This document shows, piece by piece, positions 11,352 to 32,272 of a DNA stretch of 64,000 nt. Origin of the DNA: a virus; IMG/VR virus record IMGVR_UViG_3300044712_000688, positions 32,001 to 96,000 of that record; one strand, written 5' to 3'. Both the position numbers and the translations under genes were made by a program. The notes under the pieces were generated by a model, which saw only the letters and a list, made by a program, of their open reading frames with translations, did not search any database and was not told the DNA's origin. Position 1 is the stretch's first letter. Each line of letters starts with the position of its first letter.

Positions 11352-11354
11352 CGG

Positions 11355-13913: not shown

Positions 13914-13993
13914 TAAGCGGATCAATCGCCGGACCTGGCCCTAGCTAACTTCGAACGAATCACTATTTATTAACTGCAGTACGATTAGATTCC

Positions 13994-14281
13994 ATGAGAG
14001 CAATTGAACTCCACTTAATAGAGAACGAAGTCGACGCTGGTATGGCCATCGTGGCTGGACTAGTTACCCCTGAAGATCTAGCTGACATTGAATGCATAAG
14101 CTGCACTGAAGAAGTAGGTCAGTCGAGTGGTTCGTTCTATGCATATCTAATAGGCCTTGATGAGAAGTCACAATGGATAGTGTGCCTGGACTGTGCTCAG
14201 GATGCGATCAGTGCTGTACCTGTAAGTCCATTCTTAGATGAGGATCTTGATCCCCTAACTTTTGACGAAGACGATGACTAG
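13994..14281 (+). CDS. Acidic Cys-motif hypothetical protein
   Basis: CISC and CLDC pairs. Confidence 0.65.
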   Translation: MRAIELHLIENEVDAGMAIVAGLVTPEDLADIECISCTEEVGQSSGSFYAYLIGLDEKSQWIVCLDCAQDAISAVPVSPFLDEDLDPLTFDEDDD

Positions 14282-14408
14282 CTGCTGATCGATCTTCCGA
14301 AAAAAAAAATAAAAAAATCTTTGTTGGAAGAGTTGCGCTTTTGTCGCGACTTCGTGTAAAGTTGCTCTTGTCGGGAAAACGACACTCAACTACTGGAAAG
14401 GCACGAAA

Positions 14409-14915
14409 GTGAACCCAACAACATTCGGGGAAGTATCTTCCGAAATTGCTGACGCACTTGCCACTTCGCACGAAGAGGTAAGCAACAAGCCTCGCCTAAT
14501 GGGAATGGGCATTTACCTTGAGGCGCACGCAACCAACTCATACCCACGAACCACGCAAGTTCTGATTACCCCAAGTGGTAAGAATGAAAAGGGTGAGGTC
14601 GTAAGTATGGCTGTTATCTATCGCACCATTAGCGAGTTCTCACCTCGCGCTCAATGGCGCACTAACTTTGTTCGCACTCCAAAAGAGTTTGAGGCTATGT
14701 CGCCTGTTGATAAGGCTGTTCACCTCGCCTCGCGTGCTAACGAAACCACTGCGCGTATGTTCCCAGAGGGATTTACGCCACGACCACGACCAATCGTGTT
14801 CGAACTAACTGATGTTGATTTCAGCGACATTAGTTCTTGGAAAGCACCTGCGTCTGCGTTGCGCCGAATTACTAAAGCGCGTGCCGAAGTGGGCTACCCA
14901 GAAAACCTTTACTAG
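14409..14915 (+). CDS. Hypothetical protein
   Basis: GGAAAGG RBS, GTG start, own promoter. Confidence 0.75.
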   Translation: MNPTTFGEVSSEIADALATSHEEVSNKPRLMGMGIYLEAHATNSYPRTTQVLITPSGKNEKGEVVSMAVIYRTISEFSPRAQWRTNFVRTPKEFEAMSPVDKAVHLASRANETTARMFPEGFTPRPRPIVFELTDVDFSDISSWKAPASALRRITKARAEVGYPENLY

Positions 14916-14942
14916 GGAAATCGAAAAGGACGGAAAACTAAA

Positions 14943-15959
14943 ATGACTATCGAAACCAAAACCCACGAAGAAATCGTGGACGCAATCTACCCAGACCTGA
15001 CTTCACTGATTTTCGGTGTCGCTGTTCAGGGTGAGGACGAAACCAAAGTTCCTGCTGGTCTGACTTCGCTAATGCCGAAAAGTGGACGCGCAAATCTTCG
15101 CGCTAAGATTGGAACTGGAACTCCAAAACCAAAGGCAAAGGCAACTGTGAGCGTAGATGTAATTGAGGGCGCAGAGAAGTATCAGCGTCCAAATGGCGAT
15201 TTCTACTTCTCGCGCTCTTGGGGCGAACATTCAGATGTTGAGGTGCTACGCAAAGCACGCGCAAACAATCAGTATGTGCTTTTGTATGGTGCGCCCGGAA
15301 CTGGCAAAACTGCCCTAGTTGAGGGCGCGTTCCCTAACGAACTTTACACAATTCTTGGTTCAGGCGACACCGAACTTTCGGACTTCATTGGTGGCTATGT
15401 TCAGACCCCAAGTGGTTCGTTCGAATGGGTGGACGGCGTTCTGGTCAAGTCTGCCGAAGAGGGCAAAGTTCTTCTGATTGACGAGATTGGTCTGATTGAC
15501 CCAAAGGTTCTTTCGGCGGTCTATGGTCTAATGGACGGACGCAAGGAAATCGTAATCACTGCGAACCCAGAGCGCGGAACTGTAAAAGCAAAGGACGGCT
15601 TTTATGTGGTCGGCGCGACAAACCCCAATGCGCCGGGCGTGCGCCTAAGCGAGGCGTTGCTCTCACGCTTTTCCATTCAGGCTGAAATGACGACTGACTG
15701 GGCATTGGCTAAGAAGTTGGGCGTTCCTGCGTCTGCTGTTTCAGTCGCACAAAACTTGGCGAAAAAGCAAATGAATGGCGAAACTTCGTGGTCGCCACAA
15801 ATGCGTGAACTGTTGGCATACAAGTCAATCAGCGAAGTGTTTGGAACTAAGTTTGCGATTTCGAACTTGCTTGCGAGTGCGCCCGAACTTGACCGCCCTG
15901 TTGTGGCAGATGTTTTCACTCGCGTGTTCGGTGAAGAGTGTCGCCCTGCGAAGATTTAG
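14943..15959 (+). CDS. MoxR/CbbQ/CobS-like AAA+ ATPase
   Basis: Walker A LYGAPGTGKT, Walker B LLIDE, VVGATNP, ALLSRF. Confidence 0.9.
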   Translation: MTIETKTHEEIVDAIYPDLTSLIFGVAVQGEDETKVPAGLTSLMPKSGRANLRAKIGTGTPKPKAKATVSVDVIEGAEKYQRPNGDFYFSRSWGEHSDVEVLRKARANNQYVLLYGAPGTGKTALVEGAFPNELYTILGSGDTELSDFIGGYVQTPSGSFEWVDGVLVKSAEEGKVLLIDEIGLIDPKVLSAVYGLMDGRKEIVITANPERGTVKAKDGFYVVGATNPNAPGVRLSEALLSRFSIQAEMTTDWALAKKLGVPASAVSVAQNLAKKQMNGETSWSPQMRELLAYKSISEVFGTKFAISNLLASAPELDRPVVADVFTRVFGEECRPAKI

Positions 15960-15975
15960 TTTCCGTCCGAAACTG

Positions 15976-16015
15976 AAAAGCGAAGTGCCAGAGCAATCTG
16001 GCACTTTTGCTTTTT
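15976..16015 (+). terminator. Intrinsic terminator
   Basis: aaaagcgaagtgccaga-gcaa-tctggcacttttgctttt. Confidence 0.85.
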
Positions 16016-16244
16016 CGGGGGTCGCAGCTTTGGGGATCGTACGCATTACTTCCCACGAAGAATTAACAAAGCTTTGCCCCTGATCGACCATGGCCCAGGG
16101 TTCACCCGGGCACTAGTAATTAGGGATAGAGCTGCGCCGGACTTGGGATCGAAACTGGCCGAAATCTTTTTGGGAAATGGGGTTGCGCTCAATCGCAAAA
16201 GTGCGCTATCCTAAATGGGTAATCAGTTTTGGAAAGGACTGGAA

Positions 16245-18035
16245 ATGACGCACTACAAACCAACTTCGCGCCTCGCTACTCGCGCTGGCGCAACTCCGTC
16301 TGAATGGTTAGCAACTTGCGCCCAGATTGGTCAAGTCGCTAATGAGTGGGCTGGTCGTAATGACTTGGCTGTCTATGCTGGTGAGGACGCTGGTATGGGT
16401 CAAGCGATTGCTTGCTTTATTGGCGACACTGCTGAAATCGAAATCAACTTGGCTGGCGCGTTTGGAAAAGCAACCACGCCTGAAATGGTTGGCGACTTTA
16501 CACTTCGCGCAACCCAATACGAATGGGCAGAACCAACTGGCGTGATTTACCACGAGGCTCTTCACGCGCGTTCGTCTGATAAGTGGGATTACTCGCTCTT
16601 CGAAAGTGAACACAACAAGGGCAACCAAAATGTTCTTGACGCTTTCTGGTTGCTAGAGGAAAGTCGCATTGAGCGCATTGGCGTTTTGACTTACCCAAAG
16701 AATAGGCTCTTCCTGCGTGCGTCTGCTCTTGGTCTGGCTCTTGGCGAGATTGACGAAGAGGCATTGGCAAAGGCAAGCGAGGTTCGCGTAATGGCGCAAA
16801 TGTCTGGACTTGCTCTCGCTCGCGTGGACGCTGGCGTTGTTGGTCTGGCAGATGTTCAGAAGATTTACGAGCGTGCGCTTGATGTTCTTGGCGAAGAGTT
16901 GTTTGAGAAGTTGCGTTCTGTTTGGGTGCGTTTCCACGCTCTTCCAAATGGCGCGACTGTCGCTGGTCTGGACTTGGCACGCGAGTGGGTTGAGTTGCTA
17001 CGCGAGGCTGACCCAGAGGGCGAGAATGGTCAAGGTGCTGGAATGGCTTTCGTTCTCGCGACCAAAGGCGACTTGGAAGAGGACGCTGGTGGCACTGCGA
17101 TTTCTGTTTCGATTGACTTGGCTGACCAACAGACTGACGAAGAGTGGGCAGAAGAGGCAAAGGGTCGCGCAACCCAGAGCAAGAAGAAGAGCGAAGAGCG
17201 CAAGGTCGCTGAAATTATTTTCGACAAGCGCGAAGAGGGTTCTACTGGAACTAAGTCGCGTTCAGCACTTCGCGAAAAGCGTGCGCCAAAATCAGGTGAG
17301 CGTGCGAGTGCTGTGAAGATTGCCGAAATGTTGGACAAGGCGAAGTATCGTGAGCGTTCAGTTCACATTCGCAAAACCCACGAACCACTTGGCAAACTCA
17401 ATACTCGCAACGCTGTTCAGAATAGTGCTATGAAGTCAATGGGATTGCGTGGCGAACTTCCTGCTTGGAAGTCGAAGTCGCGCAAACACACTGACGACCC
17501 AACGCTGACCATTGGCGTAATGGTGGACATTTCAGGTTCTATGGGTTCGGCTATGGACGCTATGGCGACAACTGCTTGGGTGCTAAGTGAGGCTGGTCGT
17601 AGGGTTCAGGCGAAAACCGCTATGGTCTATTTCGGCGAAGATGTATTCGCAACTCTCAAGGTTGGGCAGAAGTTGGAAGAGGTTTCGGTCTGGTCTGCGC
17701 CTGACGGAACAGAGGTCTTTGATAAAGGGTTCTCGGCTCTCAATGGTGCGCTCGGTCTGACCTACTCGGACGGCGTGCGTTTGTTGGTCGTTGTGTCGGA
17801 CGGAAACTACACCCCGAAAGAAACCGCCAACGCGAAACGGATTGTGAAAGAGTGCGAACAGGCTGGCGTGGCTGTGCTGTTCATTACCCCAAAGGATTGC
17901 TACGGCACTGGCGCACGCGACATTACTAACGGCACGCACGCGGTTCACCTAGACGGAATGGCTGTCGAAAGTATCGCGCTGGAAATCGGCAAGTCTGCGT
18001 CTGACGCTCTCGCGAAAATCGGGGGTGGCGTGTAA
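16245..18035 (+). CDS. VWA-domain protein with N-terminal HExxH metallopeptidase-like region (CobT-like MoxR partner)
   Basis: IYHEALH, LEESRIE; MIDAS DISGSM, DGTE, VVSDG; start reassigned to 16245 from RBS and promoter position. Confidence 0.85.
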   Translation: MTHYKPTSRLATRAGATPSEWLATCAQIGQVANEWAGRNDLAVYAGEDAGMGQAIACFIGDTAEIEINLAGAFGKATTPEMVGDFTLRATQYEWAEPTGVIYHEALHARSSDKWDYSLFESEHNKGNQNVLDAFWLLEESRIERIGVLTYPKNRLFLRASALGLALGEIDEEALAKASEVRVMAQMSGLALARVDAGVVGLADVQKIYERALDVLGEELFEKLRSVWVRFHALPNGATVAGLDLAREWVELLREADPEGENGQGAGMAFVLATKGDLEEDAGGTAISVSIDLADQQTDEEWAEEAKGRATQSKKKSEERKVAEIIFDKREEGSTGTKSRSALREKRAPKSGERASAVKIAEMLDKAKYRERSVHIRKTHEPLGKLNTRNAVQNSAMKSMGLRGELPAWKSKSRKHTDDPTLTIGVMVDISGSMGSAMDAMATTAWVLSEAGRRVQAKTAMVYFGEDVFATLKVGQKLEEVSVWSAPDGTEVFDKGFSALNGALGLTYSDGVRLLVVVSDGNYTPKETANAKRIVKECEQAGVAVLFITPKDCYGTGARDITNGTHAVHLDGMAVESIALEIGKSASDALAKIGGGV

Positions 18036-18423
18036 GTCGGCGTGCCTAAGAAGTCCATTAGCGGATTGAGCAAACTCGTTTCCCCCCTTTCCAAAATCGC
18101 TCTCCGCTAACGGATTAGGAATTCCTATCAGTTCCCCCACTGGTAGGGATTTCGCTTTGCCCGGACTAGACGGATACGCGCAAGAGCTGCGAGCGCGTGA
18201 AGATCGATCTGGACTTTCCACGGATATGTGCCCGGGTCTTAATCAGGATCACGATCACTGGAACTTACCAAAGCTTCGGGGATCGTTAGCTGTGCCCGGG
18301 GCTGATCGATCAGAGAGCAAGGCCGGACCTGGCGAGAGCTGCTACGAAACTTCCAACGAAGATGTTTGTTTTGTCGCTGATGTGTGCTACTATTTACTTG
18401 TTGCCAAAAGAAGGGAAACGACA

Positions 18424-18711
18424 ATGTGCGACAACTGTGGAAACGACACCCCAAACTTCGCTGAAATGGAGTTGGACGAGAGGGACATTGCTGGCATTGC
18501 TCTTACTGCCATTGGTGTCTTTGTCGAGGACTACTGTAAGCAGGGATACGCTGACCCAAGGATGTATCGCTTGCTGGAACTTGCGACTGAACTTGGTAAG
18601 AAGTTTGGTAGCGAGGGATTGCTGAACTACTTGGAAACCACCAAGATTTACGCTGGTATGACCATTGACCATTTGATTGAGGAACACAACCTAACTGGAG
18701 AGGAGAACTAA
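18424..18711 (+). CDS. Hypothetical protein (N-terminal CDNC)
   Basis: GAAGGGAAAC RBS; the ORF-track extension to 18157 runs through spacer DNA. Confidence 0.75.
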   Translation: MCDNCGNDTPNFAEMELDERDIAGIALTAIGVFVEDYCKQGYADPRMYRLLELATELGKKFGSEGLLNYLETTKIYAGMTIDHLIEEHNLTGEEN

Positions 18712-18713
18712 AA

Positions 18714-19571
18714 ATGCCAAACTGGGTTTACAACACCCTGAGCGTTTCAGGTTCAAAGGAAAAGATTGCTGAGTTCAAGGAACTGGCAGGACGCAAAGCA
18801 CCAACTGGATTCGATAGCGAAACTGGCGTGCTGACTTACGATAACAAGGAGGAGGTCTTGTCGTTCTGGAACTTCAAAGAGCCAAAGGACAAGGCTGTTT
18901 ACTTTGGGGCGAGCGACTACAAGCCAGAGGGCTACGACTCTTGGACTATGGAAGAGCGTATGGCTCACTCTATGAAGTTCTCATCTGATGGCTGGTATGA
19001 CTGGAACATTCGTGAGTGGGGCACTAAGTGGGACGCTTGTGATGTGGACTTGAATGACGACAGCGAAACCTCGCTGGGCTACTCGTTCAATACGGCGTGG
19101 AGTATTCCCGAGCCTGTGTTCGTGGCTATGGTTCAGAAGTTCCCGACTTTGGACTTCGAGTTCTGGAGTGAGGAAGAGCAGGGCTGGGGTGCGGAGTTCA
19201 CTTCTTCGGACGGCGACGAGGACGGCGAGCGTTCCTTGATTATGACTAAGGAATGGGACATCCCCGACAGCCACCAAGACTATGTGGACAGGGACAGGGA
19301 GGATTCCTGTAATTGTGCGAGCGACCCTGACGACGACGAGTATTGGTATGACGACTGCCCTCGTCCCGAAAAGGAGTTCGAGGTTGTAGTTCGGCAAGTC
19401 ATTCGCATTACGGCGAAGTCGGCTGAATCGGCGTGGGAGATTGCGAACGGCGTGCTGGAAAACTTCACCAACGCCGAGCAACCAGACGGCGTGCGTATTA
19501 GCGAGGACAGCGTGGCGTGGGTTGAGGAAGACGGAGTGCGTGTCTATCCGACCTTGACCGAGGTTGCCTAA
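18714..19571 (+). CDS. YubB/DUF1281 ferredoxin-like domain protein
   Basis: MPNWVYNTL...WYDWNIREWGTKWDA...FNTAWSIPEP. Confidence 0.8.
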   Translation: MPNWVYNTLSVSGSKEKIAEFKELAGRKAPTGFDSETGVLTYDNKEEVLSFWNFKEPKDKAVYFGASDYKPEGYDSWTMEERMAHSMKFSSDGWYDWNIREWGTKWDACDVDLNDDSETSLGYSFNTAWSIPEPVFVAMVQKFPTLDFEFWSEEEQGWGAEFTSSDGDEDGERSLIMTKEWDIPDSHQDYVDRDREDSCNCASDPDDDEYWYDDCPRPEKEFEVVVRQVIRITAKSAESAWEIANGVLENFTNAEQPDGVRISEDSVAWVEEDGVRVYPTLTEVA

Positions 19572-19658
19572 CCCCTAACGGACAGAGAACACCAGTGGCG
19601 AGAGAGCTGCTGGTGTTTTTTGTTTGACGGATAGGCGTGCGTGGACTACGCTGATCGT

Positions 19659-19961
19659 ATGAAAAATGAAATGCTTTACCGCGAAGCCCTCGGACACATT
19701 GTTCGAGAGGAACGGATCGATCAGGGACTGACTCTACGCCAGGTCGCAGCTCGTGCGAACATCGCACTCGGATACCTAAGCGAGGTCGAGCGCGGACAGA
19801 AAGAGCCGTCCTCTGTAATTGTGGAATGCCTAGCAACCGGACTTGGTCTAAGTACAGGCGAGCTGATTATTCGCGCCGGGATCCTGGTGGGTGGATACAA
19901 CATTCCAGATACTGTCGAAGAGCTGCTGGTCGATCTAGGCCAAAAAACTTTCGCCAAATAG
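19659..19961 (+). CDS. XRE-family HTH regulator, ClgR-like
   Basis: LYREALGHIVREER..QGLTLRQVA..ANIALGYLSEVERGQKEPSS; TTGACG-N17-TACGCT-N6-ATG (leaderless). Confidence 0.85.
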   Translation: MKNEMLYREALGHIVREERIDQGLTLRQVAARANIALGYLSEVERGQKEPSSVIVECLATGLGLSTGELIIRAGILVGGYNIPDTVEELLVDLGQKTFAK

Positions 19962-20036
19962 TTTGTATTTTCTCTGACTTAGTGTAAACTGGGGGCGTGC
20001 CTGAAAAAGAGTAGGGCGTAGGGAAAGGGAAGTCCA

Positions 20037-20510
20037 ATGGGACTAGATATGTATCTATCTGCTCGCAAGTACGTGAGTGGTTACGATTTCAACAAAGAGC
20101 CAGAAAAGCAGGCGTACGCTGAAGTTCTATCTGCTAGTGGCTTGACCAAGTCAGACTTGGAATATGGGAACCCAAGTGCCAACATCGTGATTAGCGTGGG
20201 GTACTGGCGCAAGGCGAACCAAATCCACAACTGGTTTGTTCAGAATGTTCAGGGTGGGGTTGATGAGTGCCAAAGGGCTTGGGTATCTCGTGAGCAACTG
20301 GCTGAACTTCTTCAGGCGTGCGAAACTGTTTTGGCTGATGCCACGAAGGCCGAAGAGTTGTTGCCACCACAGAGTGGGTTCTTCTTCGGAAGTACTGACC
20401 TTGATGAGTGGTACTACGAAGATGTGAAGTACACCGCCAAAATGCTGAACCACCTTTTGACTTCGGAAAATCTGAAGGAGTACGATTTCGAATACCAATC
20501 CAGTTGGTAG
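20037..20510 (+). CDS. Conserved phage protein (MGLDMY...YWRKANQIHNWF...SGFFFGST)
   Basis: Widely recurring phage hypothetical motifs; strong RBS. Confidence 0.85.
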   Translation: MGLDMYLSARKYVSGYDFNKEPEKQAYAEVLSASGLTKSDLEYGNPSANIVISVGYWRKANQIHNWFVQNVQGGVDECQRAWVSREQLAELLQACETVLADATKAEELLPPQSGFFFGSTDLDEWYYEDVKYTAKMLNHLLTSENLKEYDFEYQSSW

Positions 20511-20748
20511 TCGTTTCCCTAAAAAGCAAGAACCCTCGCCTTCGGGCGGGGGTTCTTGTTTGGCGTGAGCGCAGCTGAACCGGATCAATGGATTACGCGC
20601 TCGCGGTTTGGGTGATCCAGGCTGGGGGCTACCGTCGGAACTTCCAACGAAAAAAATTTCTCGTATGAAGTTGCGTATTATCGGCGTATCCTGCTAAACT
20701 CTAAGGGTGGACGAAAAAGTTCACTTGGAAACTATCAAAGGGAAACAA

Positions 20749-21138
20749 ATGGAAACCGTATCAGTCACTGGTCTAGTAGCAACCACACCTCGCCACATCG
20801 TAACTCAGGACGGCTTGCCGATTACTTCATTCCGTCTCGCGAGTTCTTACCGTCGGTTTGACCTCAACCAAGGCAAGTGGGTGGACGGCGAGACGAATTG
20901 GTTCACCGTCACTTCGTTCAAGCAACTCGCTATCAACGCGTCTCAGTCTGTAAGCAAGGGCGACCGTATCACCGTCACTGGCACTCTTCGCGTTCGCGAC
21001 TGGGACACTGGCGACCGTTCAGGAACTTCGGTTGAACTTGAGGCTACCTCAATGGGACACGACCTCGCTTGGGGAACTTCGGTTTTCACTCGCACCGTTT
21101 TGGTTCGCGAGGTTGAGCCTGAGGAGGAGTTAGTCTAA
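20749..21138 (+). CDS. ssb: Single-stranded DNA-binding protein (short actinobacterial type)
   Basis: VTGLVATTP...SFRLAS..RRFD...WVDGET.WFTV..F..LA.N...SV.KGDR.TVTG.LRVRDW. Confidence 0.9.
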   Translation: METVSVTGLVATTPRHIVTQDGLPITSFRLASSYRRFDLNQGKWVDGETNWFTVTSFKQLAINASQSVSKGDRITVTGTLRVRDWDTGDRSGTSVELEATSMGHDLAWGTSVFTRTVLVREVEPEEELV

Positions 21139-21297
21139 CCGCCAACTCAACCCGACAACCTGAGCAAGTTGTAAAACTGCTCGCCACTTATTTCTGGCTG
21201 GTCCAGGCGCGATCGATCTGCAGCTGGAGATCAAGGCTCGAAAAAAAGTTTCTGGCGTGTCGTTGAAAATGTCAGTGGGTGGTGCTACATTTGAAGT

Positions 21298-21504
21298 ATG
21301 TCAAACAGAAAAGAATTCAAGCAGATAGTCAAGGTCGCCGAGTCCAAGGGCTGGGTCGTGACTCTGACTAAGGGGGGACACTTGAAGTGGACTTCGCCAA
21401 CTGGGCAAATAGTTTTTTCCGCGTCCACGCCGTCAGACGGGCGTGCCGTCAAAAACCTAGTGTCGGAACTTCGCCGACACGGAATCACAATCGAGAGGAA
21501 ATAA
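21298..21504 (+). CDS. HicA-like toxin (mRNA interferase fold)
   Basis: GWVVTLTKGGHLKWTSPTG...STPSD...NL..ELRR; leaderless promoter TTGAAA-N17-TACATT. Confidence 0.7.
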   Translation: MSNRKEFKQIVKVAESKGWVVTLTKGGHLKWTSPTGQIVFSASTPSDGRAVKNLVSELRRHGITIERK

Positions 21505-21505
21505 A

Positions 21506-21709
21506 TTGAGCAAGCAGGTATTTTTTGTCATTGGCGTTGATTTAGATGATAAAGAGGTTTTTATCGCAGATGACACTTATTCAGCGCGGTTTAGTGAAGA
21601 TGAGCAAGTTTGGGATACAGACGCAAACGAGTGGATTGAAGATGACGATAGGAAATACTATCTCGATGCGTTAGACCTTTTGAACACGAAGCGTCTAGCA
21701 AAAGACTAG
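21506..21709 (+). CDS. Acidic hypothetical protein
   Basis: TTG start directly after HicA-like gene. Confidence 0.6.
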   Translation: MSKQVFFVIGVDLDDKEVFIADDTYSARFSEDEQVWDTDANEWIEDDDRKYYLDALDLLNTKRLAKD

Positions 21710-24521: not shown

Positions 24522-24839
24522 ATGGCTCGAATTCCAAATTACAAGATTGAAGAAAAACTGAAGAACTTTGAAAGTTTTGAGAACTACAACCGAACCATTA
24601 CCGCGGTTCGTGACGGTTCTCGCTATTCGATTGTTCACTGGAACACACCGATTCTTGAGTATGACGTGGACAAGTCTGAGATTGTCATGTTTCGCAGTTA
24701 CCACATTTCTCAAACAACTAGCACGCTGGTCGGCCGTATCTTGCGCTCGCTACCGCCCGAAGTTGTGCTTGAGATGTCGCGCAAGTTTTCGGAGCGCCGA
24801 GAGCAGTATCGCATTTTGAAAATGGCTCGCTTGATTTGA
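24522..24839 (+). CDS. Hypothetical protein
   Basis: GAAAGGGG RBS; terminator 24849-24884. Confidence 0.75.
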   Translation: MARIPNYKIEEKLKNFESFENYNRTITAVRDGSRYSIVHWNTPILEYDVDKSEIVMFRSYHISQTTSTLVGRILRSLPPEVVLEMSRKFSERREQYRILKMARLI

Positions 24840-25031
24840 AAGTGAGCAAACCGGAACCCCGCCCAAGTGGCGGGGTTTTGTTTTGATCGGATCTAGTGCC
24901 GAGAGCTCGCCCCGGGTTCGCAGCTGATCGATCTGAAGACACGAAAGAAAATGTTCGTTGGAAGTTGCGTGTTGTTTCGAAATGCGGTATCTTTTTATTA
25001 GGCGAAAACGCCTAAACGAAAGGGAAACGAA

Positions 25032-25349
25032 ATGGCAATGACCAAGAGAACAGCACACCTTTTGACTAGTGACTTTTGCCTAAAGGGTCACGACATTCGG
25101 GATAAAGAAGTTGCTCTCACTAGACACAATAGGCGCAACGGTGACGGCGAAATTGTTGGCGTGACGATTAGGTGTCGTGTCTGCTGGAACGATACCAGTA
25201 GGGAGCAGATGTATAAATTCAGGAAAACCGCTGGAACACCTGCTCTACAAATCAAGCGCTTACTAATCAAGCACCCAGAACTCGCACCTGCTCTACTGGA
25301 ACACGCTAAAAACCTGCTGTTGGCGCAGGCTATGAGCGTCAAGTCTTAG
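25032..25349 (+). CDS. Zn-finger protein (CLKGH...CRVC)
   Basis: AAACGAAAGGGAAACGAAATG start motif. Confidence 0.75.
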   Translation: MAMTKRTAHLLTSDFCLKGHDIRDKEVALTRHNRRNGDGEIVGVTIRCRVCWNDTSREQMYKFRKTAGTPALQIKRLLIKHPELAPALLEHAKNLLLAQAMSVKS

Positions 25350-25396
25350 CAACTATCTCTGTAACAACTACCAACCAAAAACGAAAGGGAAACAAA

Positions 25397-25777
25397 ATGG
25401 CAAACTTTGATTTGATCGAGGAACGCGTTGAAGACGCAAAGGCAATTGCTTGGGACACTTGCCACAAGATTTATGTTCTTATGGATGATGAACAAGTCTC
25501 ACTTATGCGTAAGTATGAGTATGACCCGATTATCACCAAAGACGAAATGACCGCAACTGAAATGGCAGAGACTATCAAGAAGTGGTATGACGAAAGTTGT
25601 GGTTTGCGTTTCGTGAGCGCGGTCTCAACTATGCCCGAAGGTCAAGACGCTAACGAAGGTTTCGAAACCCTAATCGGGCAATTCGAAGAAGACGATTGTG
25701 AAGATTGTGGTGAGCGCGGTTGCGCTGGTGTCTGTAATGACTACGAAGACGAAGACGAAGAAGAAGAAGAAGACTAG
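25397..25777 (+). CDS. Acidic protein (WDTCHKIY..MD) with C-terminal CxxC-CxxxC and D/E tail
   Basis: Start motif; ORF track. Confidence 0.8.
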   Translation: MANFDLIEERVEDAKAIAWDTCHKIYVLMDDEQVSLMRKYEYDPIITKDEMTATEMAETIKKWYDESCGLRFVSAVSTMPEGQDANEGFETLIGQFEEDDCEDCGERGCAGVCNDYEDEDEEEEED

Positions 25778-25934
25778 GGGGTGAGCTAAGCTTCGGCCGC
25801 GCTCGCGGATCGAAGTGGTCGCCCTGGTCGATCGATCGCCGGACACGAAAATAATCTTCGTTAGAAGTTGCGCTAACAACCAAAATACAGTATCTTTGTA
25901 GTAGGCAAATTGCCTAGAAAGTAGGGAAAGAAAA

Positions 25935-26144
25935 ATGAGTTTCGGAGAGCCGAAGTATCCAGATGTTCAGGTTCAGTTGGTCGGGGAAGACGGAAACGCT
26001 TTCGCGATTATGGGGCGTGTGGCTAGCGCACTAAAGAGCGCAGGTGTGTCTCAGTCTGAGATTGACGAATACTATGCCGAGAGCACAAGTGGCGATTATG
26101 ACCACTTGCTACGCACCGCAGTCAAATGGGTGGCGGTGGCATAA
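25935..26144 (+). CDS. Conserved small phage protein (LVGEDGNAFAIMGRV...GDYDHLL)
   Basis: Recurring motif family. Confidence 0.8.
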   Translation: MSFGEPKYPDVQVQLVGEDGNAFAIMGRVASALKSAGVSQSEIDEYYAESTSGDYDHLLRTAVKWVAVA

Positions 26145-26491
26145 TGGGAGACCGCTCGCTGATTCAGATTGAGAGCAAGTCTTTCAAGACCCCGATTACC
26201 CTTTATGGACACTGGTCGGGTGGAGATAACCTAATCGCTGTTCGCAATGTGCTGACTCGCACTGACCGAATCGGAGACCCAAATTACCTAACCGCGCAGC
26301 TGTTCTATGAGTTCGCGGTGGCTTTGGGTGGCTACGCCGGAGAGTTGTCTTTCGGGATTGACGCCTATGGTGCTAGCGAGAGCGATGTCTGGGTTGATAA
26401 CGACACAGTGGTTGTGAACGCCGACACTGGAGAGTATTCAGTCGGTGGAGAATTGTTTACCGAATTTGCGAAAGTCGCAGATAGCGTGTAA
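26144..26491 (+). CDS. Conserved phage protein (MGDRS...LYGHWSG...DP.YL)
   Basis: Coupled to upstream gene; ATG 26144. Confidence 0.75.
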   Translation: MGDRSLIQIESKSFKTPITLYGHWSGGDNLIAVRNVLTRTDRIGDPNYLTAQLFYEFAVALGGYAGELSFGIDAYGASESDVWVDNDTVVVNADTGEYSVGGELFTEFAKVADSV

Positions 26492-26500
26492 ACTGATAGA

Positions 26501-26616
26501 AGTCACTTGGGCTTGAGATTACTCGCTCGGGTGATTATGCGGAAGGAGTTATCCCCCTTTCACCTTCCGCAAAGAGAGCGGTAGCAATTCCCCCCAATTG
26601 CTACCGTTTTTCTTTT
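26501..26616 (+). ncRNA. Candidate three-hairpin small RNA with C-rich loops
   Basis: Promoter TTGCGA-N17-TAAACT (26466-94); stems 26503-12/26525-34, 26539-46/26563-70, terminator 26579-26616; no ORF. Confidence 0.6.
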
Positions 26617-26774
26617 GTCTGGATTAGGGCCGCGCTCGCGGTGATCGATCAGAGCTGCACCCTGGCCGGACCGGAGCTTGCCGGGATCGAAACGCGCTCG
26701 CGGAATTCGTTTGAAGTTGCTTGCTTTTCTTGTTGTTGTGGAGTAACCTGTTGGTATCCAAAGAAAGGGAAACA

Positions 26775-26915
26775 ATGGAAACCAAAGAGATTACCGAGTG
26801 CTACAAATGCCAAACCGAGATTGAAGCATTCGTTGGGCAAGTTCATCCGTTGTGTGATGAGTGTCAAGAAAGTTTTGACGATTGGTTCGCACAACAATTG
26901 CGGATGTTCAAGTAA
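26775..26915 (+). CDS. 46-aa Zn-ribbon protein (CYKC...CDEC)
   Basis: GAAAGGGAAAC RBS. Confidence 0.75.
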   Translation: METKEITECYKCQTEIEAFVGQVHPLCDECQESFDDWFAQQLRMFK

Positions 26916-26992
26916 TCGCACGACACGACTAACCTAGTTGCGTGTTTGAGCAAACTAGGCTAATCTGGAATTACCTAGAAAGGGGAAACGAA

Positions 26993-27142
26993 ATGGCAAA
27001 GCAAGACACGATTTGGATTGGTTGCTGGGATTGTGGTAAGACTATTGAAGTGCCTTGGATTGGGGACTATTCAAGTCGCCAGATTTGTGCCGAGTGTAAA
27101 GCAGAAAGGGCTGAAAAATGGGCAGTAATCTCGAAGGGCTAA
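26993..27142 (+). CDS. 49-aa Zn-ribbon protein (CWDC...CAEC)
   Basis: GAAAGGGGAAACGAAATG start motif, own promoter. Confidence 0.75.
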   Translation: MAKQDTIWIGCWDCGKTIEVPWIGDYSSRQICAECKAERAEKWAVISKG

Positions 27143-27168
27143 GTCGCTACAAAAGGCGCAAGGAAATT

Positions 27169-27342
27169 ATGAACGCACGAAAGACCGCACTAGAAGTCTT
27201 TGGGGCGCTCGCCGAGTATGACGCAAAGCCAGAAGTCTTTTCGATTTTCGATGGAATGGAATTCGAAGTCGTGAACGAAACTGGAATGGCGTTGGATGTT
27301 GAGTTCGTTGGTCGCACCATTACAATTAGGAATTGGAAATAA
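27169..27342 (+). CDS. 57-aa hypothetical protein
   Basis: AAGGA RBS. Confidence 0.65.
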   Translation: MNARKTALEVFGALAEYDAKPEVFSIFDGMEFEVVNETGMALDVEFVGRTITIRNWK

Positions 27343-27365
27343 TCGTGATTGGATTTCACCGTTTT

Positions 27366-27539
27366 ATGGAAAAGTTTTGGCGAGTGATTAGCGCGATTGC
27401 CTTTCGCACTTTTCACACTACGCAGACGCTCGCGCATAAGTCTTATGTAAAGGGTGGTCGCCACGGTCGCCGTCGTCAGGAACGCAAACCCCTAACCGCA
27501 ATCTGGAAGTGGTGGCAGAATGTCAAAGCGCAATTCTGA
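27366..27539 (+). CDS. Basic hypothetical protein
   Basis: ATG 27366 in ORF-track frame. Confidence 0.5.
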   Translation: MEKFWRVISAIAFRTFHTTQTLAHKSYVKGGRHGRRRQERKPLTAIWKWWQNVKAQF

Positions 27540-27681
27540 GTTCGCGATTATTTGGCGTGGCCTTGCTGTTGGGCTAGGGTTTGTCTTTATTATGGGGTTC
27601 GCGATCGGTTATCGTGACGGGCTTACCCCCTGGTTTTTGCTTGGCGCAGCTACTGTTTGTTGGTGGCTATCAAGAAATTGA
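27520..27681 (+). CDS. 53-aa two-TM membrane protein
   Basis: MSKRNSEFAIIWRGLAVGLGFVFIMGFAIG...; not in ORF track. Confidence 0.55.
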   Translation: MSKRNSEFAIIWRGLAVGLGFVFIMGFAIGYRDGLTPWFLLGAATVCWWLSRN

Positions 27682-27752
27682 TTTGACTTTTTAGGGAAAC
27701 GCAGTAAACTGATTCTGTTAGCAAATGCTGACACTTACGAAAGGGAAACAAA

Positions 27753-28124
27753 ATGGGAACAAAGGTATTCGCAATTCGTATCAATGAAGATGGCGGATTT
27801 GTTTTCGGGGACGAAACTCACGAAGTAATTTCACTTGACTTTCTACAGTCATTCGTTGGCGGTTGGGTTCAGGTTGTGCCACTATCTGGTTCACTCTCTG
27901 GCTTGTCAATGTGGCTAAACGAAGAAGGCAAGTTTTCAGACCTTCCGCTAAATGAGTTGGCAACCGCAATTTGGGAAGACTCATACGGCAAGACTGATTT
28001 TATCGTTGGCAATGTTCTAATCACTGGTGGCGAAGACTACGATGGTGAGATTGAAACTCTCACTAGTGAAGAAACTGATAAGATTATGGAAGTTGTTCTG
28101 AAAGCAATGGAACACTCTCACTAA
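27753..28124 (+). CDS. DUF3846-family protein
   Basis: LQSFVGGWVQVV...WLNEEGK...LP.N..AT...DFIVGNVLITG. Confidence 0.85.
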   Translation: MGTKVFAIRINEDGGFVFGDETHEVISLDFLQSFVGGWVQVVPLSGSLSGLSMWLNEEGKFSDLPLNELATAIWEDSYGKTDFIVGNVLITGGEDYDGEIETLTSEETDKIMEVVLKAMEHSH

Positions 28125-28396
28125 GTTTCGTTTCCCTACGAAAAAAGACCTAGGCTAAGTCTCTAAACTGGCCTTTTATCACGCCTAGATTATGGAAGCT
28201 CGCGCTCGCAGTTTTGATCAAAATTGTTCGCAGCTTGGCCCGGCCCTGGCCTAGTTGGTCGATCCGCGCTCGCCGGCCTTGGTCGATCCGCGCAGCTCGA
28301 CACGCTCGCAAACATTCGTTGGAAGTTGCTTGACTTTTACTCGCGCAGTGTGGCAAGATTGAGTTAGCCGAAAGGCACTAAGGAAAGGGAAACAAA

Positions 28397-28825
28397 ATGG
28401 AAACTGTAGTAATGGCATTCGAAACTTTCGAGATTACCAATTCTTGTATCTGTGAAGATTACGATGAAGACACCGAGATGTCGTCACCTAGCAACGAATG
28501 TTGGGGTTGCTATGACGATGAAGTTAGCAACTTGTGGTATGAAGTCATCAAGCCTTGGATGAACGCGAATGGCTACGATGAAGCCACTAACCTAATCATT
28601 CGCGGAAGTGGAATGACTTGGCAACGCTTGAGCGGATACGCTTACGCGACACCGAAGACGCTTGTTGAGAAGTTGTCTATCAACGGCGATTGGACACTAA
28701 GGTTCAAGATTACAGACGGCGCGAAGACACTCACCGCTGTTCGCTACTCTCACGATGAGCCAGTTGGCACTGGCGAGTTTACTTTCGAAGTTGCCGAAGA
28801 AGAAGACGAAGACGAATTGTTCTAG
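28397..28825 (+). CDS. Acidic protein with CxC...CxxC
   Basis: Start motif, own promoter. Confidence 0.8.
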   Translation: METVVMAFETFEITNSCICEDYDEDTEMSSPSNECWGCYDDEVSNLWYEVIKPWMNANGYDEATNLIIRGSGMTWQRLSGYAYATPKTLVEKLSINGDWTLRFKITDGAKTLTAVRYSHDEPVGTGEFTFEVAEEEDEDELF

Positions 28826-28936
28826 CGCGACACGCTCGCGACACGCAACCGCCCGATGTGGCGGTTGTTGTGTTTTTGGCAGATGTGTGGCATACTTTTG
28901 TTATCGGCAGAAAGCCGAAAAACGAAAGGGAAACAA

Positions 28937-29107
28937 ATGGCACTAGACGCACAGACCGCAAACACCGTTCGACACTTGCTAATGCGCTTGTCGGCAGAGA
29001 CAACCGTAGACGCTTGGTTGCTCGCAGAGAATGAAGAATTGGCAGAAATGTGGAAAGACGGCGCAACCTATGAGCAAATGCTCGAATGGGTAAACGAAAA
29101 CTTTTAG
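28937..29107 (+). CDS. 56-aa hypothetical protein
   Basis: AAAACGAAAGGGAAACAAATG; terminator 29120-29151. Confidence 0.75.
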   Translation: MALDAQTANTVRHLLMRLSAETTVDAWLLAENEELAEMWKDGATYEQMLEWVNENF

Positions 29108-29389
29108 CCCGAAGAAATGGAAAGCCCTCGCGAAAGCGGGGGTTTTCTTTTTACGCGCTCGCGGGTTTTTGATTCTGATCGATCACCGGCCAGGACCGCG
29201 CAGCTTGTTCGTTCGAAGTTGGCAGCTTGTTCGCCGGATACCGCCGGGCTTAGGCAGCTTGTTCGCCGGGGCAAGGCCGGAAGCCGTTATCAATTTGTTA
29301 CAAAAATTATTTGGAAATTGACTTGTATTTTCGAAAAATAGAGTATGCTTATTACATAAGCCGAAAGGCAAAAACGAAAGGGAAACGAA

Positions 29390-29722
29390 ATGCTACTAAA
29401 CACTAAGACCGAGATTGCTTTCACTACTGGCGAGATTGACGGCAAGAAGTTCATCGGCGCAACCAAAGCAGACGCAAGCGCAGTTTTCACCGCTTGGCTA
29501 AACGACAACCTAGATTGGGTTTCGGCAGGGCGTGAGAACAACGCGGTTGAGATTGTTGGCGTATCTTATGACTTGGTTTCGTTCAACAATTCTGTTTATG
29601 TCGCTTGGTTGTGCAATGAATGCGAGAGCAACGATTGCGAGAGCGATGGCGAACCGCACGAAGAAGAGATTGGCAATTGCCGATTCGAAGATTTGGAATT
29701 GGTTAGCGAGTATCGGCGCTAA
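29390..29722 (+). CDS. Hypothetical protein with CNEC...C...C
   Basis: Start motif; terminator 29735-29768. Confidence 0.8.
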   Translation: MLLNTKTEIAFTTGEIDGKKFIGATKADASAVFTAWLNDNLDWVSAGRENNAVEIVGVSYDLVSFNNSVYVAWLCNECESNDCESDGEPHEEEIGNCRFEDLELVSEYRR

Positions 29723-30148
29723 CCCCAAACCCGAAAGCCCCTAGCAGAGATGCTAGGGGTTTCTTTTTGTGTGGATTGTTTCGCGCTCGCGGTCTCTAAT
29801 TTTGATCGAAATTGCTCGCAGCTTGTTGGTCGATCGACCGAAGTTTTTGGCAGCTCGCGCCGGGTTGTTCGCAGCTCATACCCCAAACCTTGCCGGGTTG
29901 TTCGTTAGAAGTTTGCCGGATTGCTCGCAGCTCATAGTCGGATTGCGCCGGGCCTTGCCGGGTTAGAAGCAGCTCGCGCTCGCCGGATTGGTTGGAAGTT
30001 GGTTAGCAGTCTGCCGGGGCGAGTGCTAATTTCCCGTTATCAAACTGTGATAAAAATTTTCTCGAATTGACTTGACAAAAGAAAAAATACCGCTTATGCT
30101 TATTCCATAAGCCAAACGGCTTAGATACAAAAACGAAAGGGAAACAAA

Positions 30149-30451
30149 ATGACCGCAAAGACCGCAACCGTAGCAGTAGACCTAGTTTCACTCATCGCCG
30201 AGTTGGTAGATGTGAAGAAGGCAAAGGCAGACCTAGCAAACCGCGAGAGCGCAATTCGCAAGGTTGTCTTGGCAGAAACTGGAAATACCGCAACCGTAAT
30301 CGCAGACCCAAAAACTGGCGAAGTGATTGCCGAAGTGACCGAGAGCGTTCGCCGTTCGGTAAACGATTGGGAAGAGTTCGAAGCAACTTACCCAGAAGCA
30401 TACGAAGCCTTGGTGAAGTTCACCGATGTTTTGACCCTGAACACAAAGTAA
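30149..30451 (+). CDS. Coiled-coil small protein, paralogue of 23424-23723
   Basis: See paralogue; terminator 30461-30498. Confidence 0.8.
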   Translation: MTAKTATVAVDLVSLIAELVDVKKAKADLANRESAIRKVVLAETGNTATVIADPKTGEVIAEVTESVRRSVNDWEEFEATYPEAYEALVKFTDVLTLNTK

Positions 30452-30644
30452 AGGGAAAGCGAAAGCCCCTAGCCCGAAAGGGTTAGGGGTTTTCTTTTGC
30501 GCTCGCCAGGATTTGCCTTGGTCGATCCGCGCAACACGCTGAAGAAAAAAAGTTTTGGAATTGACTTGACAAATAAATTAGACCCTGTATGCTTATTACA
30601 TAAGCCAAAAGGGCTTGAGAAAAAAACGAAAGGGAAACAGAAAA

Positions 30645-30938
30645 ATGACTTACACGAAGCACGAAGTAGCGCAGGGTATCGCAGCTTGGTTCGCAATTCT
30701 ATCGGCAGGAATTGTCGCGCCGTTTAGCCTAGAGTTCGTTGGCGTTATCAACTCGATTGGATACGCAGACCTAGCCGAGAAGCAGGCCGACATTGCGCCT
30801 TACCTATTCGGTTCGCTCGCCGTCTTGGTTGTGGCTATGGCGGTTCTGATTGGTTCGTATGTGGCCGAGAACAGGTTCTGGCTACGCCGTAGCCTTGCCG
30901 ACAAACTGGAAAGGCTCGCGCTCGCCGTTCGTGGCTAA
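30645..30938 (+). CDS. Two-TM membrane protein
   Basis: Start motif; terminator 30953-30987. Confidence 0.75.
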   Translation: MTYTKHEVAQGIAAWFAILSAGIVAPFSLEFVGVINSIGYADLAEKQADIAPYLFGSLAVLVVAMAVLIGSYVAENRFWLRRSLADKLERLALAVRG

Positions 30939-31097
30939 CCCCCTAGCCGAGAAGCCCCTAGCCGATTGTGGCTAGGGGTTTTTCTTTACCGCGACACGCT
31001 CGAAAAAAAAGTTTGCGGAAACCCTTGACAATTGGTTTAGGGTTGGTAAATTAGAAGTGTTAGGTGATACCGCCTAGCAAAACGAAAGGGAAATGAA

Positions 31098-31331
31098 ATG
31101 AACATTCAGAAGTTTGAGAAGGCACAAGACAGACTAACCGCGGTTGTATTCGTTGCGGGTATGGTTGCTTGGTTCTTTGGCGCGGATTACTACGGCTTGG
31201 CTATGGCTAATGACCTAAGCGGATTCGGTGAAGTTGCTTACCCGATTATTCTTGCCGTTAGCGCGGTTGTGGCTATTACCGCGCTCGCGGTGAAAGCCTA
31301 CGGATACCGCCTAGCAAAGACTTACCGCTAA
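31098..31331 (+). CDS. Two-TM membrane protein
   Basis: Start motif; terminator 31351-31383. Confidence 0.75.
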   Translation: MNIQKFEKAQDRLTAVVFVAGMVAWFFGADYYGLAMANDLSGFGEVAYPIILAVSAVVAITALAVKAYGYRLAKTYR

Positions 31332-32272
31332 CCCCCTAAGCGGTAAACCGAAAGCCCCCTAGCCCCCTAGGGGGTTTTCTTTTGCCGTTGCCGTCTAGGA
31401 TTGCTCGCAGCTTGGGCTTGCCGTTGCTTGGTTGTTGGGTTGGTTGTTGGTCGATCCGCGCGTGAGTATCGCGCCCCCGGAAATGGCTCGCCAGTTTTGC
31501 TCGCGTGTTGCTTGGCTAGGCACACACACACACAAACACGCAGGGCTAGGTTTGCTCGAAGCAAAGCTCGAAGACTTGGCAGAAGTTTGCCTAGGCTCGC
31601 CAGGATTAGGCTAACCCCTAAACCCTAGCCCCCTAGGTTCGTTGATAGGTTGTTAGCCCCTAGGCAGACTTATGATGACCCCCAAAGGTTCGTGAGAAGG
31701 CTCGCACACACACAAGACACAAAGACCTAGGCACTTAGTCTTGACCCTTTCGAAGTTGTATCACTATGACCCCCTAGAAAAAAACTTTTTTTATTTTTGG
31801 CAGGAAAAAGGCACTAACTATCAACGAAGAAAAAAGGAAGGCATACCCCCTACTTTTAGGAAACAATTTCGGGGGCGGCCACGATCAACGACTGCCGTCT
31901 CACCCGCCAAAAGCACCTAGCGGTCAATATAGCATAGTACCCCCCTTCTGCAAATTCCTCGGCCAAATAGACGCCCCTATTTACAAAATCCAGCTCCACA
32001 AATTTTCAAAAAAATCGTCCAGGGGTACCATACTTCAACAAAAAGTCAAGCCCCACGCCAAATAATAGACGCCCCTACGGGTGTAAAATAGATCATACGG
32101 AGAGCACATCCGAGCAATAAAAGCTCAGGGTGTGCTTTTTTGCATCTCTGGATATTTGGAGTTGCATTGGGTATTTGCTTATGCTAGGCTCTCCGTTTAT
32201 AACTGAATATTGAAACAAACACCAAGACAATAAACGCCGAGAAATTACTCTCAAAGGAAAGGTAGGCGCTAA

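Follow-up and report, generated by a model that had tools for sequence, protein, structure and literature searches.

Why should a phage genome keep a set of genes almost free of short palindromic words while the gaps between these same genes are packed with some of those words? This question is raised by a window of 64,000 nucleotides, bases 32,001–96,000 of the 136,298-bp IMG/VR virus record IMGVR_UViG_3300044712_000688, in which a block of small rightward genes displays both features (all coordinates given below are those of the window unless stated otherwise). An original prediction, made from the letters of this DNA, had pointed out the contrast and proposed three models for the gaps: sacrificial cut zones, sinks for restriction enzymes or methylases, and natural cloning sites. 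From sequence comparison, we favour, at about even chances, another reading, in which the block would be a restriction-proof early module, probably located in a terminal repeat, and the gaps would carry islands of methylase targets.

The source of the window is an uncultured actinobacterial phage, whose portal protein shares 74% identity with the portal of Actinomycetia phage DSL-LC01 and 60–65% with the portals of the Microbacterium phages Pumpernickel and A3Wally; a megablast search against a phage collection gave no match. The ends of the record overlap by less than 50 bp, which indicates that the assembly is circular. The gene set considered here consists of the 32 rightward genes lying between 14,409 and 31,331. 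They are grouped in units bounded by sigma-70-like promoters and ended by strong plus-strand terminators (a hairpin followed by a T-run), and the ribosome-site word GAAAGGGAAAC is common to nine of the units. Small genes, with an own promoter, a strong ribosome site and a terminator for each unit, are the features by which host-takeover or early modules are recognized, and the block displays all of them. Annotation with PHROG and Pfam assigned mostly unknown functions to the block proteins and found no recognized anti-restriction protein inside the block.

The borders of the block are sharp and lie at about 14.28 and 31.9 kb. The summed density of ACGT, GTAC, TGCA, CATG, TTAA, TATA and ATAT falls from 25/kb to 0–7/kb at 14.3 kb and is again 20/kb at 32 kb. 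The pattern has no counterpart elsewhere in the 136-kb genome, in the rest of which the words purged from or enriched in the block occur at ordinary rates; what had been predicted for the head and tail genes thus extends to everything outside the block. A depletion confined to one block, the remainder being ordinary, is what characterizes DNA of the first-entering type.

In the 11.6 kb of block coding sequence (the gene of a helix-turn-helix (HTH) protein is excluded from all these counts), GATC occurs twice (25414 and 27603) and AGCT three times (26298, 27648 and 30683), exactly the counts and positions reported in the original prediction; there are also three CCGG, one CCWGG and three GCWGC. 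The same prediction had listed seven palindromes as missing from the VWA-like gene (16245–18035) and from 18424–19571, namely GATC, AGCT, GGCC, CCGG, GTAC, CATG and TGCA; all seven are indeed absent, as are ACGT, TTAA, TATA and ATAT. Expected counts were obtained by shuffling synonymous codons within each gene, the codon usage of the gene being kept. Against these expectations, the deficits are very large for AGCT (3 versus 41.9, z score −7.8), GATC (2 versus 29.2, z −6.5), TGCA (1 versus 36.4), ACGT (3 versus 31.1) and TTAA (0 versus 23.9), and are also found for GTAC (7 versus 35.3, all seven in a single gene), GGCC (8 versus 28.8), CATG (3 versus 19.9) and CCGG (3 versus 18.2). Globally, depletion affects 11 of the 16 palindromic tetramers, by factors of 4 to 40, and the ten most strongly depleted tetramers are nearly all palindromes. 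No avoidance is seen for CTAG, CGCG and GCGC, and the deficit of TCGA and AATT is no more than mild. Interrupted palindromes are affected as well: CGWCG (5 versus 29), GCSGC (0 versus 13), CCWGG (1 versus 12) and GGWCC (0 versus 7).

The avoidance had been thought to be synonymous, and both the codon shuffles and the choice of codons at junctions agree. Aspartate before C is written GAC 30 times and never GAT (132:78 elsewhere), isoleucine after G is written ATT 68 times and ATC twice (59:53 elsewhere), and GAG-ATC never occurs. Codon usage is rejected as the cause of the depletion, as the usage of the block is close to that found elsewhere in the genome and the codon-keeping shuffles predict 18–42 copies of each purged word. 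An avoidance acting at the RNA level is also rejected: the depleted words are palindromic, ATC makes up 30% of the isoleucine codons, and both orientations of CCWGG are avoided, so that the constraint must bear on DNA rather than RNA. Furthermore, the 3.6 kb of terminators, promoters and leaders contain 6 copies of ACGT, GTAC, TGCA, CATG, TTAA, TATA and ATAT taken together where 75 are expected, and 6 copies of GATC, AGCT, CCGG and GGCC where 42 are expected. The depletion is therefore selected and covers promoters, leaders and terminators besides genes.

Three units of the block deserve a separate mention. The HTH gene could have been taken for a site-enriched element, an idea that was rejected: it carries 10 GATC, AGCT, CCGG and GGCC in total where its own codons predict 7.0, an ordinary value, and is merely unpurged; its transcript is probably leaderless. 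The gene at 20037–20510, which holds all seven GTAC of the block coding sequences and has no GATC or AGCT, looks as if it had been purged under another word list or recently acquired. Lastly, 24100–24380 is a promoter-to-terminator unit without any convincing open reading frame (ORF), the sole frame lacking a ribosome site and reading through the terminator; this unit may encode a small RNA.

The gaps between the units show the reverse pattern. The original prediction had counted about 50 GATC in the spacers, and exactly 50 are found in the 5.2 kb of block intergenic DNA, along with 41 AGCT, 38 CCGG, 18 GGCC, 16 CCWGG and 24 GCAGC. Expectations for gaps come from shuffles that preserve dinucleotides. 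In all intergenic DNA, no zone being selected beforehand, GATC exceeds its expectation of 13.9 with a z of 10.5 and ranks first of the 256 tetramers; AGCT (21.5 expected), CCGG (23) and GCAGC (3.7) are also in excess. From the list of words said to fill the spacers, GATC, AGCT, CCGG, CCWGG and GCWGC stand, and GGCC has to be removed, since its 18 copies fall within the 12–23 expected. Local GC content or dinucleotide bias is rejected as the cause of the enrichment by these shuffles, made with and without selection of zones.

All the gap-enriched sites fall between the T-run of a terminator and a point 15–30 bp upstream of the next −35 box. They form seventeen islands totalling 1,645 nt, with 59% GC, about 45% of the bases of which are covered by sites. 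Islands contain 46 GATC (11.3 expected), 40 AGCT (8.2), 37 CCGG (11.4), 28 TCGA (10.5), 16 CCWGG (4.1) and 9 GATCGATC (0.1), without any enrichment in GGCC, CGCG or GCGC. The statement that every avoided word is enriched in gaps would thus be false: apart from these three unenriched words, the seven palindromes that are depleted in units and not enriched in gaps are near expectation inside islands (12 versus 18.7), ACGT and CATG being still low. The letters flanking the core tetramers vary. GATC is unbiased between strands; much of the excess of AGCT and CCGG in gaps lies in strand-biased words, GCAGCT (28 versus 8 AGCTGC) and GCCGGR (24 versus 2 YCCGGC).

Are the sites of the islands kept by selection? 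Three IMG/VR contigs, L006, L007 and L008, are 85–95% identical to the window at the nucleotide level, and the split between genes and gaps is maintained in all of them (for example, 1–3 GATC in genes and 57–59 between genes). It is therefore common to four genomes that are 75–88% identical at 4-fold sites. In the alignment of these genomes, identity reaches 0.90/0.82/0.82 for the site letters of islands, compared with 0.875/0.767/0.744 for 4-fold synonymous sites and 0.79/0.69/0.67 for island filler, although the alignment of short words could inflate island conservation somewhat. The conservation ranking of island tetramers is headed by core tetramers (GATC 0.62 and AGCT 0.61, compared with GGAT 0.31 and CGGG 0.24), and the cores surpass words overlapping them, such as GGAT in the case of GATC. 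Site letters being better conserved than 4-fold synonymous sites and much better than filler, selection acts on the concentration of sites in gaps, which upholds the suspicion of the original prediction that it was no accident. Some islands have been wholly swapped for unrelated sequence that is equally site-rich; island 1, for instance, cannot be aligned by blastn to L006 and L007, yet it is site-rich in both. Comparison of the four genomes thus indicates that the site content of islands is kept by selection while their arrangement changes fast.

This conservation bears on the idea that islands are a functionless by-product. According to it, the methylase, or else a change of host, would have relaxed the constraint on gaps, in which sites would then have built up by biased mutation, for example cutting at GATC followed by fill-in and actinobacterial end-joining to give GATCGATC, along with slippage of short words. 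All 12 copies of GATCGATC in the genome lie at 13,150–29,184 of the window, L007 carries GATCGATCGATC in place of the GATCGATC of the others, and the islands of a more distant relative, L029, are degenerate repeats of AGATCT, CCTGG and GCAGCT words; moreover, the mycobacterial Ku/LigD system reportedly fills in 5' overhangs. However, fill-in products of other cuts leaving 5' overhangs are absent or rare (CCGCGG 0, TCGCGA 3), so that fill-in scars are rejected as a general mechanism, the expected doublet being found for GATC only. The islands of the window, unlike those of L029, are not simple tandem repeats, no such drift is seen in the rest of the genome, and drift does not account for site letters conserved above synonymous sites and filler. 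A by-product is therefore judged unlikely.

A second explanation, close to the cloning sites of the original prediction, is that gap palindromes and the repeated promoters and terminators serve as break-and-join points at which units are gained, lost and exchanged. The blastn alignments between relatives do stop at islands. The unit region at 24.1–24.9 kb is missing in L007 and L008, with breakpoints located within islands, one of them adjoining a GATC, and with a promoter remnant that persists in the fused gap; one gap of L006 and L007 contains an additional ORF. A precedent is provided by the PeSL (promoter and stem-loop) elements of T4-type phages, repeated elements that flank small variable genes and at which units are gained and lost (PMC2839356, PMC4122927). 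Nevertheless, given the share of island bases occupied by sites, breakpoints close to a site are expected by chance. Evolvability is only a weak selective force and would leave unexplained the conservation of core tetramers above synonymous sites. Finally, relatives devoid of the methylase, described below, are equally modular without islands, and their purged gaps also speak against the cloning-site model. Such linkers are thus given a low probability.

The extra ORF, located in the gap that follows the VWA gene (L006:7330–7720 and L007:11880–12240), is small, cysteine-rich and full of GATC, AGCT, CCGG, CATG and GTAC; in the window and in L008, this gap holds an island only, with faint remnants of the ORF.

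A profile search with the VWA protein widened the comparison to 13 contigs. In all 13, there is a purged block that begins some 1.9 kb upstream of the VWA gene and has a list of forbidden words specific to the lineage. G001 is devoid of AATT, ACGT, AGCT, ATAT, CATG, GATC, GGCC, GTAC, TGCA and TTAA over about 24 kb; L021, L022 and L025 retain CATG; L024 lacks GATC and CCGG throughout the locus; L026–L028 lack GATC and AGCT over the whole 15–22-kb locus. Such a variety of lists would be the expected product of selection by host restriction repertoires that differ between lineages. The nearest named phage, DSL-LC01 (OQ999401, 8313–50139), follows a different, genome-wide strategy of avoidance: TTAA and ATAT are absent from 42 kb of its sequence, AATT and CTAG are scarce, the GATC content is ordinary and no purge is limited to a block. 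The terminal repeat of A3Wally is unpurged.

Islands are confined to six members of the family (the window, L006–L008, L020 and L029). G001, L021 and L022, which lack the methylase, share the layout of terminator, gap and promoter, but their gaps are as clean as their genes, with 0–1 GATC (6–10 expected), 0–4 AGCT (8–15 expected) and 0–1 GGCC (10–11 expected). Unprotected sites located between units are therefore selected against rather than harmless.

This result is the main difficulty for the sacrificial zones of the original prediction. In that model, host enzymes would cut in the gaps only, and each intact fragment containing promoter, gene and terminator would stay expressible. If the block lies in a terminal repeat, the second copy would in addition save the information. 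Several observations are in keeping with it: sites are confined to untranscribed DNA; nearly all gaps contain at least one GATC; after in-silico digestion at GATC, AGCT or CCGG, 21 fragments of 300 bp or more remain in each case, together about 16.2 of the 17.6 kb, and only two or three genes besides the HTH gene are hit; the depleted palindromes that are not enriched stand near expectation in islands; and the probable terminal repeat would offer the spare copy. But cutting between units is precisely what the methylase-less relatives, with the same architecture, are selected to escape, and it is only by sites of the first-entering repeat that T5-type phages become sensitive to restriction (PMC10644984). 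Furthermore, mere tolerance predicts a neutral density and not a 3- to 5-fold enrichment with conserved sites, and leaves the co-occurrence with a phage methylase without explanation. Decoy zones are consequently considered unlikely. The sink of the original prediction survives only in an altered form, as putative targets of a phage methylase rather than bait for host enzymes.

Islands could also be ordinary operator arrays on which DNA-binding proteins of the phage or its host, such as the HTH protein, would dock, the tetramers being half-sites without any role in methylation or restriction. An ACACG box precedes many promoters, and at five of them a GATC lies 1–11 nt upstream of this box; GCAGCT, GCCGGR and CGCTCGC are strand-biased. 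On the other hand, at most about 10 of the 50 GATC would be explained in this way, the contexts of the cores vary, flanking letters being far less conserved than the cores, and whole islands are replaced by unrelated arrangements. The ACACG box is also found before many promoters of the island-less G001, where no GATC stands beside it. We regard operators alone as improbable. In G001, a conserved 18-mer, GTGTATTTATTTTTTCTG, precedes every early promoter.

Which enzyme, then, could recognize the islands? A single C5 cytosine methylase is encoded in the genome, at a place outside the window that lies 22 kb upstream of the block; methylases of the Dam type or of the N6/N4 families are absent. The C5 enzyme is specified by two overlapping ORFs. 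The 188-aa product of the first carries motifs I–VIII (PF00145, E 2e-35, model positions 2–164). The second, alone, gave no hit in Pfam or in a PDB search; it matches the C-terminal halves of single-chain C5 methylases of 560–780 aa (E 6e-50) and ends with GNGVCP, so that the pair holds the catalytic motifs I–VIII and IX–X of the family. The split is conserved in five genomes and is therefore not an assembly error; the enzyme may consist of two subunits or be produced by programmed frameshift. A tRNA-like sequence follows the two ORFs.

Five island-bearing contigs cover the position of PF00145, and all of them have it (G000, G002, G004, G005 and G006); it was found in none of the eight island-less contigs, among which are G007, complete at 153.7 kb, and G008, in which the position is covered. 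Packing of sites only in relatives that encode this modular methylase makes it more likely that the gaps are methylation-target islands than bait for host enzymes. Moreover, the variable region of the enzyme differs between relatives by clean modules of about 35 aa, each with a T-P motif; relative to G006, there is one extra module in G005 and two in the window type. GATC, CCWGG and GCWGC are enriched in the gaps of all three types. For CCGG, the gap z is +1.7 to +4.3 in the window type (+7.9 in islands), +2.8 in G005 and −0.5 in G006; for AGCT, it is +3.5 to +5.6 in the window type and +1.3 and +0.4 in the other two types. The enriched words thus roughly track the methylase modules, a suggestive pattern of three points within one clade.

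Where in the phage chromosome the block lies also matters for the favoured reading. A3Wally has an exact direct terminal repeat of 15,503 bp, containing about 41 small rightward genes and a non-coding end rich in CTAG and CACA. The sequence at 8721–9662 of the window is homologous to the first gene of this repeat (E 2e-53), the window endolysin, 9846–10679, is homologous to its gene 4, the A3Wally endolysin (E 8e-29), and 31.4–31.9 kb resembles its end. By synteny, the block is probably the right 17.6 kb of a terminal repeat extending over about 8.65–31.95 kb and collapsed to one copy by the assembly. The analogy drawn by the original prediction with early-injected DNA fits both this probable position and the sharp borders.

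Word polarity fits the same picture. Between 8870 and 31700, the plus strand carries 39 GCTCGC (often as CGCGCTCGCGG), nearly all of them right of 20.06 kb, and 19 GCGAGC, nearly all of them left of 19.86 kb, the bias holding in genes and in gaps. These words are concentrated in the candidate repeat and flip at its centre, and GCAGCT flips near the same place (about 20 kb). The flip fits a repeat of which the two copies each face a physical end, and the orientation of GCTCGC would be the one needed by a Chi-like signal facing both ends; GCTCGC is not clearly polar in G001.

To the left of the purged block, at 9700–11400, palindromic tetramers of every kind are in excess in the endolysin gene and in the gene that follows it, the density in the endolysin gene being the highest of the genome. 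Compared with synonymous shuffles, this gene has 33 GATC, AGCT, CCGG and GGCC (17.7 expected) and 25 copies of seven others (ACGT, GTAC, TGCA, CATG, TTAA, TATA and ATAT; 16.3 expected). Most relatives, including methylase-less ones, have the same site-rich zone just upstream of their purged block.

The favoured reading can now be stated as a sequence of steps. The block would be an early module of the host-takeover type, made of about 20 autonomous units read by the host RNA polymerase. By analogy with T5 and BF23, host nucleases would reach it before it is protected in any way. Its functional parts have been cleared of most short palindromes, in an extreme form of classical restriction-site avoidance, as the sequence statistics and the 13 related genomes show. 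The site-dense gaps would be a later addition in one clade, serving as targets for the phage's own modular C5 methylase, presumably multispecific and acting on GATC, CCWGG/GCWGC, CCGG and AGCT. Island sites would then bear 5-methylcytosine in virion DNA, and their methylation would explain why they are tolerated where unprotected sites have been eliminated. As to the function, one guess is that methyl marks beside early promoters distinguish parental, methylated modules from newly replicated, unmarked ones; alternatively, they would otherwise control the access of proteins to early promoters. The location of islands beside promoters, together with the five GATC close to an ACACG box, makes a methylation-dependent mark or switch the preferred guess. 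A bolder version, held only tentatively, is a rewritable "methyl barcode" on each unit: islands would co-evolve with the methylase modules and gain a word with each module, while 5-methylcytosine would distinguish the infecting module from its replicated copies, for example to shut off early promoters after replication, and would hide from host enzymes the only palindromes of the first-entering DNA.

Several observations weigh against this reading. Units of the window type are still nearly free of the very words that methylation would protect; it is possible that they stay purged because methylation is incomplete or because of methyl-dependent restriction. The units of G005 and G006 have been partly repopulated with sites. 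Most copies of CCGG and AGCT belong to words with a strand bias (24:2 for GCCGGR; 28:8 for GCAGCT, which flips near 20 kb), a bias which is not predicted for a purely palindromic target and hints at other DNA-binding factors; likewise, owing to the pairing of GATC and ACACG at five promoters, part of the signal may be that of an ordinary operator. The pattern linking modules and words rests on three enzyme variants, and G006, which has the smallest variable region, nevertheless has three enriched words. Island-bearing genomes form one clade, so that the link between islands and methylase could result from common descent only. Lastly, the terminal repeat and the first entry of the block are deduced from a relative with 60% portal identity.

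What would follow from these data? The 13 lineage-specific lists of forbidden words would provide a readable record of the restriction systems that each lineage has faced. In one clade, the trend is reversed in the gaps, where a few of the forbidden words are concentrated and conserved, and this coincides with the gain of a modular cytosine methylase. If the link is true, the clade would offer a natural example of a multispecific methylase co-evolving with its targets, the specificity of such an enzyme could be guessed from phage sequence alone, and islands would be candidate elements by which phages of Actinobacteria control their early genes epigenetically. The purged gaps of the sister lineages are, in addition, a direct argument against the notion of decoy cut sites.

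The features of the locus are collected in the table. Two further observations concern the DNA located to the right of the block. At 35498–37936, just upstream of the terminase gene, a relative that is 92–95% identical (L012:9648–9664) differs by a clean indel, being devoid of the Nol-like carbamoyltransferase gene and of the one that follows. At 48344–50692, after an ORF of 1,815 aa belonging to the head module, an ORF of 688 aa matches an 'anti-restriction protein' PHROG (E 1e-119).

Table. Features of the early-gene block and associated elements (window coordinates unless marked otherwise).
Feature	Coordinates	Strand	Remarks
Candidate long direct terminal repeat	8650..31950		collapsed to one copy in assembly; A3Wally synteny
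Purged early-gene block	14282..31900	+	32 rightward genes, about 20 promoter-leader-gene-terminator units
GATCGATC at left block border	14287..14294		precedes first early promoter
MoxR-like AAA ATPase gene, site-free	14943..15959	+	PF07728, E 1e-20
Site island 1, terminator to next promoter	16024..16160		13 sites among GATC, AGCT, CCGG, GGCC, CCWGG, GCWGC
VWA-like gene, family marker	16245..18035	+	none of 11 purged tetramers; homologues in 13 phage contigs
Site island 2	18161..18342		19 sites; gap of L006 and L007 holds extra site-rich small ORF
XRE-type HTH gene, unpurged	19659..19961	+	PF01381, E 3e-9; 4 GATC, 3 AGCT, 2 CCGG
Site island	20571..20621		
SSB gene, site-free early unit	20749..21138	+	PF00436, E 2e-17
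Site island	21203..21232		
Site island	22085..22143		
Site island	22486..22571		5' part overlaps terminator stem
Site island	23245..23288		unrelated, equally site-rich sequence in L007 and L008
Site island	23795..23879		GCAGCT words repeated
Site island	24042..24100		
Site island	24385..24455		GATCGATC 1 nt before ACACG box
Site island	24851..24933		
Site island	25784..25842		
Site island	26628..26688		two flanking CGCGCTCGCGG words
Site island	28170..28297		
Site island	29177..29280		
Site island, largest	29804..30017		20 sites
Site island, small	30506..30527		
Non-coding block end, CTAG- and CACA-rich	31332..32270		like non-coding right end of A3Wally terminal repeat
C5 methylase, two overlapping ORFs in different frames (188 aa, 320 aa)	genome 24395-25700; L010:1492-2812		about 7.6 kb before window start

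Various known systems share some of these features. The PeSLs of T4-type phages are comparable by their architecture, the indel of the unit at 24.1–24.9 kb in L007 and L008 being likewise bounded by gaps with promoters and terminators. They belong to a different phage group and are conserved sequence elements instead of arrays of restriction words; we know of no link between PeSLs and a methylase or site avoidance. In SPO1, the takeover genes are organized as short operons, the early promoters and ribosome sites of which are strong. About 24 small genes make up this host-takeover module and occupy most of the 13-kb terminal redundancy of that phage (PMC10531801). The block resembles it as a cluster of small early genes and in the architecture of its units. 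However, SPO1 protects its DNA with hydroxymethyluracil, infects a host of another phylum and has no homology to the block. To our knowledge, site-free units separated by site-dense gaps have not been described for SPO1.

The closest parallel for the enzyme is provided by the C5 methylases of the Bacillus phages SPR, phi3T and rho11s, studied by the Trautner laboratory, which contain tandem modules each thought to read GGCC, CCGG, CCWGG or GCNGC. Here too a phage C5 methylase has a modular variable region, with modules of about 35 aa that differ among relatives, but it is made of two overlapping ORFs and its multispecificity is putative. Methylase targets arranged as intergenic islands beside purged genes are not known to us in the Bacillus phages. 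For the islands themselves, P1 pac, oriC with SeqA, pap and Mu mom come to mind: clustered GATC in short non-coding DNA, the methylation of which controls the access of proteins, P1 having its own methylase. The packing of several GATC in a short non-coding stretch is common to these cases and to the block. Nevertheless, they are single loci with one type of site and adenine methylation, whereas the block has many islands, with three to five words of the cytosine type, beside every early unit, and a gating that is putative. No account of target islands separating purged units was found in the literature.

A further comparison is with T5/BF23-type phages and Autographiviridae, in which sensitivity to restriction is set by the sites present in the first-entering DNA (PMC10644984, PMC12455610). 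The first-step-transfer DNA of T5 and BF23 and the leading region of Autographiviridae resemble the block in being a discrete early region free of sites within a genome that is not. The T5 and BF23 DNA, which is pre-early, belongs to the terminal repeat, and the block probably occupies a long terminal repeat as well. The phage described here, known from sequence alone, has no sequence homology to T5 and differs from it by islands that have no T5 counterpart and by a much broader purge, which extends to 11 of the 16 tetramer palindromes and several pentamers and is lineage-specific over 13 relatives. Avoidance of restriction sites in first-entering phage DNA is thus already known, and this family displays a sharper and more informative form of it.

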